From a virus (taxonomy: Duplodnaviria > Heunggongvirae > Uroviricota > Caudoviricetes), in IMG/VR virus record IMGVR_UViG_3300045988_005640: 64,000 nucleotides of DNA; one strand, given 5' to 3'. Below the pieces are notes generated by a model, which saw only the letters and a program-made list of their open reading frames with translations, ran no database searches and had not been told where the DNA came from. Position numbers and translations under genes: made by a program. Below are positions 8,783 through 19,913 of the stretch, piece after piece. Numbering within the stretch: position 1 is the stretch's first letter; the number at the start of each line of letters is the position of its first letter.

Positions 8783-9356
8783 AAAAGGTCTAGTTAGAAC
8801 CTTAGTGGATGTTATTGGTCACAGATTAGCTCGTGATAAAAATAATAGGCCAAACGTAATTAGGGCTTACCCTTCTGATAACTCAAATGACAAAGGTTTA
8901 AAACCTGACCAGCCATTTATCACCGTATATTGTCAGGATGCTGCAACACCTTATGGTTGGGTTCTTGATAAGTTTGTTGAGGATGATGTAGTTTGCTACA
9001 GAATTGCTTTTCAGATTCCAGTATTAATTACGGTGAATGGTAAAGGTGCTCACAGTATTATGCTTGAGCTTAAACAACGATTAGAGATGAGTTCAGTCAG
9101 AGATTTAATCCTTGAAGAAACAGGAGCTACAGTACTGGACACTGGAGCAATCCCAAATGATTACACTTATCTCAATACAGATTTCGAAAATTCTGCACCT
9201 CTTGTTGTAACTCTTGTAAAAAACTCAGTCCTGAAAGATGAACGTGGAAGTATTATTGAGCGTGTCATTGTTGATGGTGAGTTAGTTTATGAAGAAGGAC
9301 AAGAGCCACCAGAATATATTATCCATCTAGATGTAGACTCCAAAGGGGTAAAATAA
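8757..9356 (+). CDS. Hypothetical protein (tail completion or neck)
   Basis: 199-aa ORF immediately upstream of sheath candidate. Confidence 0.3.
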   Translation: MQLETAELEKGLVRTLVDVIGHRLARDKNNRPNVIRAYPSDNSNDKGLKPDQPFITVYCQDAATPYGWVLDKFVEDDVVCYRIAFQIPVLITVNGKGAHSIMLELKQRLEMSSVRDLILEETGATVLDTGAIPNDYTYLNTDFENSAPLVVTLVKNSVLKDERGSIIERVIVDGELVYEEGQEPPEYIIHLDVDSKGVK

Positions 9357-10709
9357 ATGTGGAATCCAATTGTTAATGTAGATATTACATTGAACACCGC
9401 AGGAACTACAAGAGAAGGTTTTGGTTTGCCACTATTCTTAGCTTCAACAGATAACTTTGAAGAAAGAGTCCGTGGTTACACTTCCTTAACTGAAGTTGCT
9501 GAAGATTTCGATGAAAACTCTGCTGCATATAAGGCTGCTAAACAACTTTGGAGTCAGACTCCTAAAGTAACTCAGCTTTATATTGGTAGACGTGCTATGC
9601 AGTACACTGTATCAATTCCTGATGCCGTTACCGAAAGTACAGACTACTCAATTACTGTAGCTGCTGGCGGTGGAATTTCTCAACCATACCAGTACACAGC
9701 ACAAGATTCAGACACTGCTGAGGTAGTGTTGCAACAGTTTAAAACACAGATTGAAGCTGACCCAACAATCAAAGATAAGGTTTCTGTGAATGTAACTGGT
9801 AGCAATGGCTCTGCCACAATGATTATTACCAAAGCTGGTGATAATGACTTTGTGAAAGTAACAACCACAGCACAGACTGTACATATTGCAAGTACAACTG
9901 CCGATACAGCATCAACTGCTCTGGCAGCTATCGAAGCTTATTCTACCGACTGGTATTTCATTGCAGCAGAAGACAGAACTCAACAGTTTGTCTTAGCAAT
10001 GGCTTCTGAGATTCAGGCTCGCAAGAAAATCTTCTTTACAGCTAACTCTGATGTAGCAGCACTGCAAGGGACAGAATTAGCCAGTGCAAATGATGTTCCA
10101 GCACAGCTTGCTAAGAATATGTACACTCGCACAGTTTGCTTGTGGCATCACGCAGCAGCAGAAGATTACCCAGAGATGGCATACATTGCTTATGGTGCTC
10201 CATATGATGCAGGTTCAATTGCTTGGGGTAATGCTCAGCTAACTGGTGTAGCAGCTTCTCTACAACCTTCTAATCAGAGACCTCTGACAAGTATTCAGAA
10301 GTCAGCTTTAGATGCACGTCACTGTAACTTTATTGACCTTGATGGTGGTGTTCCAGTGGTTCGTAGAGGGATTACTTCTGGTGGGGAATGGATTGATATC
10401 ATCCGTGGTGTTGACTGGTTAGAATCAGACCTGAAAACTTCTCTGAGAGACTTGCTAATTAACCAGAAGGGTGGTAAGATTACTTATGATGATACTGGTA
10501 TTACCCGTATTCGTCAAGTCATTGAAACCTCTCTGCAAAGAGCAGTCAACAGAAACTTCCTGTCATCTTACACAGTTAATGTTCCTAAAGCCTCTCAAGT
10601 TGCTTTGGCAGACAAGAAAGCTCGTATCCTGAAAGATGTTACCTTCGCAGGTATCTTAGCAGGGGCTATCTTGGATGTTGACTTGAAAGGTACAGTGGCT
10701 TACGAATAA
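9357..10709 (+). CDS. Tail sheath protein (by synteny)
   Basis: 450-aa ORF directly upstream of tube candidate, chaperone frameshift pair and tape measure. Confidence 0.45.
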   Translation: MWNPIVNVDITLNTAGTTREGFGLPLFLASTDNFEERVRGYTSLTEVAEDFDENSAAYKAAKQLWSQTPKVTQLYIGRRAMQYTVSIPDAVTESTDYSITVAAGGGISQPYQYTAQDSDTAEVVLQQFKTQIEADPTIKDKVSVNVTGSNGSATMIITKAGDNDFVKVTTTAQTVHIASTTADTASTALAAIEAYSTDWYFIAAEDRTQQFVLAMASEIQARKKIFFTANSDVAALQGTELASANDVPAQLAKNMYTRTVCLWHHAAAEDYPEMAYIAYGAPYDAGSIAWGNAQLTGVAASLQPSNQRPLTSIQKSALDARHCNFIDLDGGVPVVRRGITSGGEWIDIIRGVDWLESDLKTSLRDLLINQKGGKITYDDTGITRIRQVIETSLQRAVNRNFLSSYTVNVPKASQVALADKKARILKDVTFAGILAGAILDVDLKGTVAYE

Positions 10710-10724
10710 TAGAGGTAAATTGGA

Positions 10725-11171
10725 ATGGCTATGTATCAGCAATATTCCCCTAAAGACGTTGTATGTAGCTGGAATGGTATTGCCATTGAAGGCTTTGCCC
10801 CAGATTCATTCTTACGTCTACAGAGAACATCACCACTTGTGACACCAGTTGTTGGTGCAGGTGGTCAGGTTGCTCTGACAAGAAATGCAGACAAGACAGG
10901 TACTATTGAGATTGAGCTAATGCAGACTTCTCTCTCTAACCAGATGCTTTCTGCAATTCAAGCTAAACAAGACAATATGGAACTTGAAGAAGATATCTCT
11001 TCTAACTTCGTAATCTACGACCCATCAGGCTCTGTTCTGGCAACCGGTATTAATGCTTGGTTGCAGGAATTACCACAGATTGAACTTGGTCGTGACCAGA
11101 ACTCTAAAACTTGGATTTTTGGTTGTGAGAAGCTAGACTACACTTCTACAATTCCAGCGTCAAGTGTTTAA
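10725..11171 (+). CDS. Tail tube protein (by synteny)
   Basis: 148-aa ORF between sheath candidate and chaperone genes, followed by a strong terminator. Confidence 0.45.
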   Translation: MAMYQQYSPKDVVCSWNGIAIEGFAPDSFLRLQRTSPLVTPVVGAGGQVALTRNADKTGTIEIELMQTSLSNQMLSAIQAKQDNMELEEDISSNFVIYDPSGSVLATGINAWLQELPQIELGRDQNSKTWIFGCEKLDYTSTIPASSV

Positions 11172-11181
11172 TAAATCCTAT

Positions 11182-11220
11182 AAGGGGGAGACTTTAAAAG
11201 GTCTTCCCCTTTTTTGTTTC
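11182..11220 (+). terminator. Intrinsic terminator after tube gene
   Basis: Stem aagggggagact/ggtcttcccctt with loop ttaaaa, then T-rich tract. Confidence 0.6.
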
Positions 11221-11244
11221 TTTTAAAAGTATTAAGGAATCACA

Positions 11245-11643
11245 ATGAAAACAGAATCTAGAGTAATTAATGGCAAGAAAGTAAATATCGTTCTGCTTGG
11301 GGCAAGAGATGGTATTAAGATGTCTATGAAGTTGGGTAAAATTGTTGTTCCAACTTTTGCACAGATGCTGTCAAGTCTGACTGACAAGGGTAAGAAAGAA
11401 GCTCCAATGGTTCCATTTAAAGAACTTGTTGAAGCTTGTTTTGACAGAATTGAAGAAATTAACCTTGAAGAAATGGCTACCCTGTTATTTCAAGGGGCAA
11501 CTGTTGATGACTTCCCACTTAATATTGATACATACTTCCAAGCAAACTATGGTGAATTTATTGATTACTTAGCATTTGCGCTGGAGGCAAACTTCGGAAG
11601 TTTTTTCGAAGCAAGCATTTTCAAAAGCCTAACTTCTCAGTAA
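11245..11643 (+). CDS. Tail assembly chaperone (G-like product)
   Basis: 132-aa ORF immediately upstream of tape measure gene; contains slippery heptamer near its 3-prime end. Confidence 0.55.
   Translation: MKTESRVINGKKVNIVLLGARDGIKMSMKLGKIVVPTFAQMLSSLTDKGKKEAPMVPFKELVEACFDRIEEINLEEMATLLFQGATVDDFPLNIDTYFQANYGEFIDYLAFALEANFGSFFEASIFKSLTSQ
11601..11607 (+). promoter_or_regulatory. Candidate -1 programmed ribosomal frameshift slippery site T_TTT_TTC
   Basis: Heptamer in X_XXY_YYZ register relative to the 11245 ORF frame; the -1 frame is open from 11565 to 11885. Confidence 0.5.
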
Positions 11644-11645
11644 AC

Positions 11646-11884
11646 ATGGGTAACACTCTACAGACACCACTAACTGATGCTGCTGTAGAGGCAACCTATG
11701 AAGAAGCAGACGAGATGAAATTTGTGCTTGCTATTTATGGTATGGAAGGGTGTAAAGAAACACTTGACCAACTCTTTGCTATGACATTCTCTGATTTATT
11801 ATCATTGAGACAATTTCTTGAAATTCAGAGGTCGTATAAAGAGGAAATTGCTTACAACGAACTTAGAAGAGCAGGAAAAATGTA

Positions 11885-11885
<1 letters not shown>
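11646..11885 (+). CDS. Tail assembly chaperone -1 frame extension (GT-like fusion C-terminus)
   Basis: 79-aa ORF in -1 frame relative to upstream chaperone; frame open upstream through the slippery site; ends at tape measure start. Confidence 0.5.

Positions 11886-19913
<8,028 letters not shown>

Follow-up and report, generated by a model that had tools for sequence, protein, structure and literature searches.

In phage lambda, the two tail assembly chaperones, gpG and gpGT, share a part that binds the tape measure protein, and gpGT alone has an extension, which recruits the tube protein (PMC5009743); the lambda work (Levin 1993; Xu, Hendrix & Duda 2004, 2013, 2014) is taken here as summarised in that source. 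The frameshift of phage P2 is 2-3 fold more efficient than that of lambda (PMC5009743). Among slippery sequences, the H_HH.U_UU.Y class is one of the most efficient in E. coli; U_UU.U_UU.C supports more than 0.1% frameshifting without stimulators, and in the A site U_UU.C performs better than U_UU.U (PMC4066793).

The closest described systems belong to relatives of Felix O1. The genome papers of the Citrobacter phages Michonne and Moogle (PMC4591319, PMC4319497) describe a -1 translational frameshift in the tail assembly or tape measure chaperone, for which the Michonne paper refers to Xu et al. 2004. A joined coding sequence for the long form is present in the records of the Salmonella phage Mushroom, which is 98% identical to the locus described here, and of Moogle and Maleficent, which share approximately 80% nucleotide identity with it. 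Fusions built from the DNA of the relatives reproduce the deposited proteins exactly, namely YP_009600435.1 (Mushroom), YP_009145710.1 (Moogle), and YP_009177317.1/AYR00813.1 (Michonne/Maleficent); these fusion annotations are predictions. The frameshift site is already known, being annotated and published for close relatives, and it is of the ordinary kind by which tailed phages produce a short and a long tail assembly chaperone. In most of the other Felixounavirus records, including that of Felix O1, the two ORFs are still entered as distinct genes. A literature search for a report of frameshifting of the rV5 type returned no papers, and the chaperones do not come up in the paper on the Bas63 structure.

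Tail module and gene assignments

The window, that is, the whole stretch of 64,000 nucleotides that was analysed, belongs to a Felixounavirus of the Felix O1 type, and its chaperone region is 98-100% identical to many records. The overlapping ORF1 and ORF2 follow the tube gene and precede the tape measure gene, in a module that consists of the following features.

9357-10709, tail sheath (PHROG 'tail sheath', E=7e-124; PDB 9mt4_Q, E=1.5e-290)
10725-11171, tail tube (PDB 9mt4_P 'Tube protein', E=2.9e-96)
11182-11211, plus strand, intrinsic-terminator-like hairpin of 13 pairs (6 G-C) followed by the T tract TTTTGTTTCT, between the tube and chaperone genes
11234-11238, plus strand, AAGGA, Shine-Dalgarno (SD) sequence of ORF1 (duplex with the 16S 3' end, -6.1 kcal/mol)
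11245-11643, plus strand, ORF1, 0-frame tail assembly chaperone of 132 aa, the 'G'-like short product (Pfam, PHROG)
11885-14113, plus strand, tape measure protein of 742 aa (Pfam TMP_3, E=7.8e-17; same annotation in relatives)

By exact look-up, ORF1 is identical to AAQ14792.1 and ORF2 to AAQ14793.1 of Felix O1. ORF1 matches the Pfam family PF21822 (Phage_TAC_15) with 71.0 bits and E=1.7e-19, the curated gathering threshold being 22 bits, and the alignment pairs residues 9-124 with positions 1-124 of the 127 in the model. It also matches phrog_1613, 'tail assembly chaperone' (E=2.9e-48), while the extension containing ORF2 matches phrog_4963, which carries the same name (E=2.8e-55). The 9mt4 chains matched by the tube and sheath are from solved Felixounavirus and Sf14 tail structures. 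With these PHROG, PDB, Phage_TAC_15, and TMP_3 matches, the original prediction is right in its assignment of the sheath, tube, chaperone, and tape measure genes. The tape measure protein is the presumed client of both chaperones.

The hairpin at 11182-11211 is strong and a probable attenuator of transcription, which would keep the chaperones and the tape measure protein below the levels of the sheath and tube. 'Terminator' features are annotated somewhere under the matches to 9300-14200 in the KhF1-3, XTG1, and Barry records. An Rfam scan of 10500-12500 at E<=1 gave as its sole match a sub-threshold DapZ hit over the terminator.

Several database labels around this locus are unusual. The chaperone or ORF2 homologues of SUT_S820, SUT_S920, C600M2, and VpaE1_ev035 are called 'head closure protein'. 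A near-identical 132-aa protein, WP_252560994.1, is filed under Staphylococcus hyicus on a 47.6-kb contig and is probably a contamination. The 'Campylobacter phage' entries A12a and A141 match in the way that rV5-like E. coli phages do. A 51-aa antisense ORF at 11232-11387 (minus strand) lies within the chaperone gene; it corresponds to ORF157 of the original Felix O1 record and looks like an over-call.

Architecture of the proposed shift site

The elements of the proposed recoding site are as follows.

11601-11607, plus strand, slippery heptamer T_TTT_TTC in codons AGT TTT TTC (Ser-Phe-Phe), the proposed -1 shift site
11601-11643, plus strand, dual-coding overlap, read as FFEASIFKSLTSQ and stop in the 0 frame and as FFRSKHFQKPNFSV in the -1 frame
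11607-11885, plus strand, -1-frame extension, 'T'-like, of 92 codons and TAA, which contains ORF2 and joins 11245-11607
11646-11885, plus strand, ORF2 of 79 aa in the -1 frame, annotated separately in most records
11883-11887, plus strand, TAATG, in which the -1-frame stop and the tape measure start overlap by one base (from the sequence)

Counted in the ORF1 frame from 11245, position 11601 is the third base of the codon AGT, the site reads ...GGA AGT TTT TTC GAA..., and the run g-TTTTTT-c spans 11600-11607. The heptamer thus stands in exact X_XXY_YYZ register with the 132-aa ORF1, as had been claimed, and the sequence bears this out. ORF1 ends in ...LEANFGSFFEASIFKSLTSQ with its stop codon TAA at 11641-11643, 36 nt past the heptamer, and the ORF2 ATG sits 2 nt 3' of this stop. 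The -1 frame was also correctly described as open from 11565 through the 79-aa ORF to the start of the tape measure gene; its TAA at 11883-11885 abuts the ATG. A tandem -1 slip yields a fusion that reads ...ANFGSFF directly followed by RSKHFQKPNFSVNMGNT...RRAGKM, the first 121 residues of which are those of the short protein and the last 92 new. The fusion predicted earlier therefore holds, and its length is 213 aa rather than about 214, since the latter figure counts the stop codon.

The analysis shows this anatomy, the family membership, and the conservation of the site described below; the shift itself, its frequency, and a division of labour between the products are inferred. A G/GT-type programmed -1 ribosomal frameshift that gives chaperones of 132 and 213 aa is the best explanation of the locus, with a probability of roughly 0.88. 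Most ribosomes would stop at the TAA at 11641-11643 and release the 132-aa chaperone, while a minority would slip one base back on T_TTT_TTC, the tRNA-Phe in the P site exchanging one UUU for another and the tRNA-Phe in the A site exchanging UUC for UUU. For the slipped ribosomes, the next codon would be CGA at 11607, in the -1 frame, and translation would end at the TAA at 11883-11885. By analogy to lambda gpG/gpGT and P2 E/E+E', the N-terminal part common to both products would coat the tape measure protein, the C-terminal extension, which is rarer, would recruit the tube protein, and the frameshift rate would set the ratio of the two chaperones.

Further features of the surrounding sequence were noted. 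A weaker shift-prone tetramer, U_UUC (codons ATT TTC), lies at 11619-11622, 12 nt past the heptamer and inside the overlap, where a slip would yield a slightly different fusion junction; the surrounding GCATTTTCAAAA is conserved in Ounavirinae. The window also carries, near its start, genes for tRNA-Ser(GCT) at 11-103 and tRNA-Cys(GCA) at 108-183. The slippery Phe codons are directly preceded by AGU (Ser) in the window and by UGU (Cys) in rV5-like phages, and the match between these tRNA genes and that codon is probably a coincidence.

Conservation across relatives

The chaperones of Mushroom, Moogle, Michonne, and Maleficent are orthologous to those of the window and share their heptamer and their junction, ...SFF followed by R.... 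The fusion differs from that of Mushroom by two residues, and an exact look-up found that the 213-aa sequence of the window is not deposited.

An in-register heptamer together with a -1 frame that runs past the 0-frame stop was found at all 13 GenBank loci and at 46/46 IMG/VR loci. The GenBank lineages comprise Felixounavirus, Mooglevirus (Moogle, Maleficent, and Sf14), Suspvirus PC79-13, Kolesnikvirus phiEa21-4, Yersinia P778, a Hafnia phage, Alteromonas PT11-V22, Pectobacterium phiTE, and the rV5-like FV3. The IMG/VR relatives (n=46; 26-100% protein identity) were found by a search built on six Ounavirinae sequences, and all 46 have T_TTT_TTC in register. Their -1 extension beyond the 0-frame stop is only 116-119 nt in seven loci, which fall just short of an arbitrary cut-off of 120 nt. 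Several of the IMG/VR loci have 57-64% G+C, a composition that does not predict a T6 run.

The heptamer is T_TTT_TTC in all lineages except for one Alteromonas phage, PT11-V22, which has T_TTT_TTT in a T7 run, and in every lineage extracted it is located at a conserved ...N(F/Y)x(S/C)FF motif, with a -1 frame that opens shortly before the heptamer and stays open up to the following gene. TTC is the second Phe codon in 17/18 lineage representatives, and this near-universal choice fits the A-site hierarchy U_UU.C > U_UU.U. In the six Ounavirinae-type lineages computed, the fusion length is approximately 210-217 aa.

Pairwise identity at third codon positions, compared among six Ounavirinae lineages, is 0.3-0.5 along ORF1, then reaches 0.72 and 0.87-0.90 over the GSFFEASIFKSL windows. 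Synonymous variation is suppressed from the heptamer onward, in the 11601-11643 overlap. In distant Erwinia/Kolesnikvirus phages, blastn keeps only query positions 391-431, equivalent to 11590-11630, which hold the heptamer and the next 23 nt. These patterns are signs that the -1 frame is under selection from the heptamer on. The G/GT-type reading of the site upstream of the tape measure gene, put forward in the original prediction, is supported by the family-wide heptamer and open -1 frame and is further backed by the synonymous suppression, by an ORF2 without initiation signals, and by the same junction annotated in relatives.

Initiation of ORF2 and mass spectrometry of Sf14 particles

A different origin of the 79-aa product would be separate translation of ORF2 (11646-11885), in which ribosomes start at the ATG of this ORF, 2 nt past the ORF1 stop, through coupling or re-initiation, with the heptamer irrelevant. 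The closeness of this ATG to the ORF1 TAA and the two-gene annotation of most GenBank records agree with such a reading, but the ATG at 11646 has no SD sequence, with a duplex energy of +0.7 kcal/mol vs -5.1 to -7.9 kcal/mol at neighbouring genes. In Mooglevirus, the corresponding ATG is preceded by an SD-like AGGAAGG (-7.2 kcal/mol), a point in favour of a separate ORF2 there. Against it, the position of the starting Met varies among genera, and in a further 87-kb Felixounavirus contig (IMGVR_UViG_3300045988_004167, positions 1557-1617), the ORF2 ATG is replaced by ATA (...SVNIGNTLQ...) and the heptamer is kept, a natural variant which argues that the ATG is dispensable. In phiEa21-4, Alteromonas PT11-V22, and phiTE, no ATG, GTG, or TTG occurs for more than 57 codons past the heptamer, so that a start placed only after these codons would lose the conserved part of the extension and cut the conserved domain. 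Independent initiation would also leave unexplained the invariant in-register heptamer and a synonymous suppression that starts 5' of the ORF1 stop. On balance, translation of ORF2 from its own start as the sole source of the product is very unlikely, and independent initiation may coexist with frameshifting in some genera, e.g., Mooglevirus.

The protein evidence comes from Sf14, the homologues of which lie on one of the extracted loci (L009) at these positions.

348-749, Sf14 homologue of ORF1 (gp41)
758-985, Sf14 homologue of ORF2 (gp42)

Mass spectrometry of Sf14 particles detected gp42 and did not detect gp41 (PMC11821841, Table 1), an outcome that also speaks for a separate ORF2. The search database held both ORFs separately, so that a junction peptide could not be found (PMC11821841). 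The detection of gp42 indicates translation of the -1 frame in a relative. The finding of gp42 without gp41 is unlike the prediction for a pure G-T fusion and would be compatible with an ORF2 product made separately. In phages of the Felix O1/Moogle lineage, the 'T' part might also occur as a separate or processed polypeptide associated with the particle, rather than solely at the C-terminal end of a G-T fusion that is transient; this is considered unlikely. If true, a particle-associated 'T' polypeptide would break with the lambda model, where the virion contains neither chaperone. The predicted Sf14 fusion has 212 aa, and the stretch of Sf14 upstream of the annotated gp42 Met reads HFQKPNFSAGSLSYS; the particle data are public as MassIVE MSV000096931. 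A comparison of the fusion with PDB chains, among which virion structures of close relatives are present, gave no significant match (best E=0.61, to an unrelated protein) and is uninformative either way.

RNA signals around the heptamer

A stem-loop or pseudoknot downstream of the heptamer, which had been suggested as a check on the programmed ribosomal shift, was looked for by folding in nine lineages and by RNAalifold in six, and none was conserved. In the window, the 40-60 nt downstream fold at -2.3 to -3.4 kcal/mol (z = 0.07 to 0.77) and the 120 nt from the heptamer give z=-1.16; folds of 40, 60, and 90 nt downstream were not significant in any of the nine lineages. The RNAalifold consensus downstream was -0.95 kcal/mol across the six lineages, and no stable conserved RNA starting 5-9 nt past the heptamer, as in a canonical stimulated -1 frameshift cassette, was found. 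The frameshift of lambda is not known to need a downstream RNA structure. Because a conserved downstream structure was not found, the efficiency of the shift may be low, with a frequency probably in the low per cent range.

An 8-bp hairpin at about 11657-11690 was rejected as a stimulator, as it is too distant (approximately 50 nt) and is disrupted in Moogle. On the 5' side, stimulatory SD sequences are documented 6-17 nt upstream of shift sites (PMC4066793), and one candidate of the dnaX kind is present.

11583-11587, plus strand, GGAGG, SD-like candidate 5' stimulator, 13 nt upstream of the heptamer

GGAGG or GAGG occurs at the same spacing in 13/18 lineage representatives, and a GAA-type sequence replaces it in 4-5 lineages, including phiEa21-4, Yersinia P778, Hafnia, and phiTE. 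Selection of this candidate as a stimulator is not supported, since it coincides with the conserved Leu-Glu-Ala codons, which may account for it, and since GAA is found in about half of those independent lineages that are AT-rich. A terminator scan additionally reported a weak hairpin, CTGGAG-GCAAA-CTTCGG, at 11581-11597, which includes GGAGG and lies just 5' of AAG-TTTTTTC.

Transcriptional slippage and chance occurrence

The same fusion could arise in the RNA. Homopolymer runs are known sites of transcriptional slippage (PMC5009743), and an RNA polymerase that adds one U on the T6 run would produce ...SFFRSK..., that is, a U7 mRNA that encodes exactly the same protein as the -1 ribosomal slip. 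The T7 run of the Alteromonas relative also accords with this reading. However, appreciable slippage by bacterial RNA polymerase needs runs of roughly 8-9, and T6 is shorter than that. Moreover, the TTC of the 17/18 representatives caps the run at six, when TTT, which encodes the same residue, would make it longer, and it fits the ribosomal hierarchy better than selection for run length. Slippage by the polymerase is therefore highly improbable as the source of the fusion.

In the window, which has 39% G+C, there are 66 in-register X_XXY_YYZ heptamers per approximately 19,300 ORF codons, or 0.0034 per codon, which makes the heptamer by itself unremarkable. For the 26 codons from which a -1 shift would lead into ORF2, the expected number is approximately 0.09. 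Apart from T_TTT_TTC at 11601, no in-register heptamer of the window has a -1 frame that extends beyond the stop of the 0 frame, and here it does so by 242 nt; the chance of such a heptamer in one sequence alone is roughly p = 0.05-0.1. Given the codon usage of this genome, Ser-Phe-Phe would form the heptamer in only about 30% of cases, and in 16 structural genes of this genome, 0/5 other Phe-Phe pairs form it. Evidence for recoding from the single sequence is thus suggestive, and it is conservation across relatives, strong as comparative evidence, that makes the case convincing. A chance heptamer with no recoding, and with a -1 ORF that is unexpressed or spurious, can draw on the frequency of in-register heptamers in an AT-rich genome but can be dismissed and, judged from the conservation data, is effectively refuted, as the heptamer is conserved in every relative examined, GC-rich ones included, and the -1-frame protein is conserved, has a PHROG family of its own, and has a homologue detected by mass spectrometry.

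Annotation of the chaperone gene

The two small ORFs ought to be recorded as a single chaperone gene that has a long form made by a -1 frameshift. An in-register T_TTT_TTC without downstream structure is a hallmark of the whole Phage_TAC_15 family, spanning Ounavirinae, rV5-like, phiTE-like, and GC-rich uncultivated phages, and could become an annotation rule. For the window itself, the frameshift confirms the gene assignments of the tail module and opens no new question on frameshifting or tail assembly.

Comparison with known frameshift systems

As in this locus, the lambda gpG/gpGT chaperones are encoded by two overlapping ORFs directly upstream of the tape measure gene (PMC5009743). Lambda is a siphovirus and its heptamer is G_GGA_AAG, in contrast to the T_TTT_TTC found here; there is no detectable sequence similarity between the two systems, the Pfam family here being Phage_TAC_15. 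The chaperone products of lambda are absent from virions, whereas the Sf14 homologue of ORF2 was detected in particle preparations.

The dnaX gene of E. coli has a heptamer with an SD-like 5' stimulator approximately 10-14 nt upstream, of which the GGAGG found 13 nt upstream here is a candidate counterpart. The element here is absent from some lineages and coincides with conserved Leu-Glu-Ala codons. The dnaX site also has a strong downstream hairpin and the heptamer A_AAA_AAG, and frameshifting on it yields the shorter of the two products.

The P2 chaperones belong to a different protein family from those described here. The E/E+E' frameshift of P2 reportedly takes place on a T-rich heptamer, T_TTT_TTG, the last base of which is G in P2 and C here. 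Like the phage described here, P2 is contractile-tailed, and its E/E+E' chaperone genes are located between the tube and tape measure genes.
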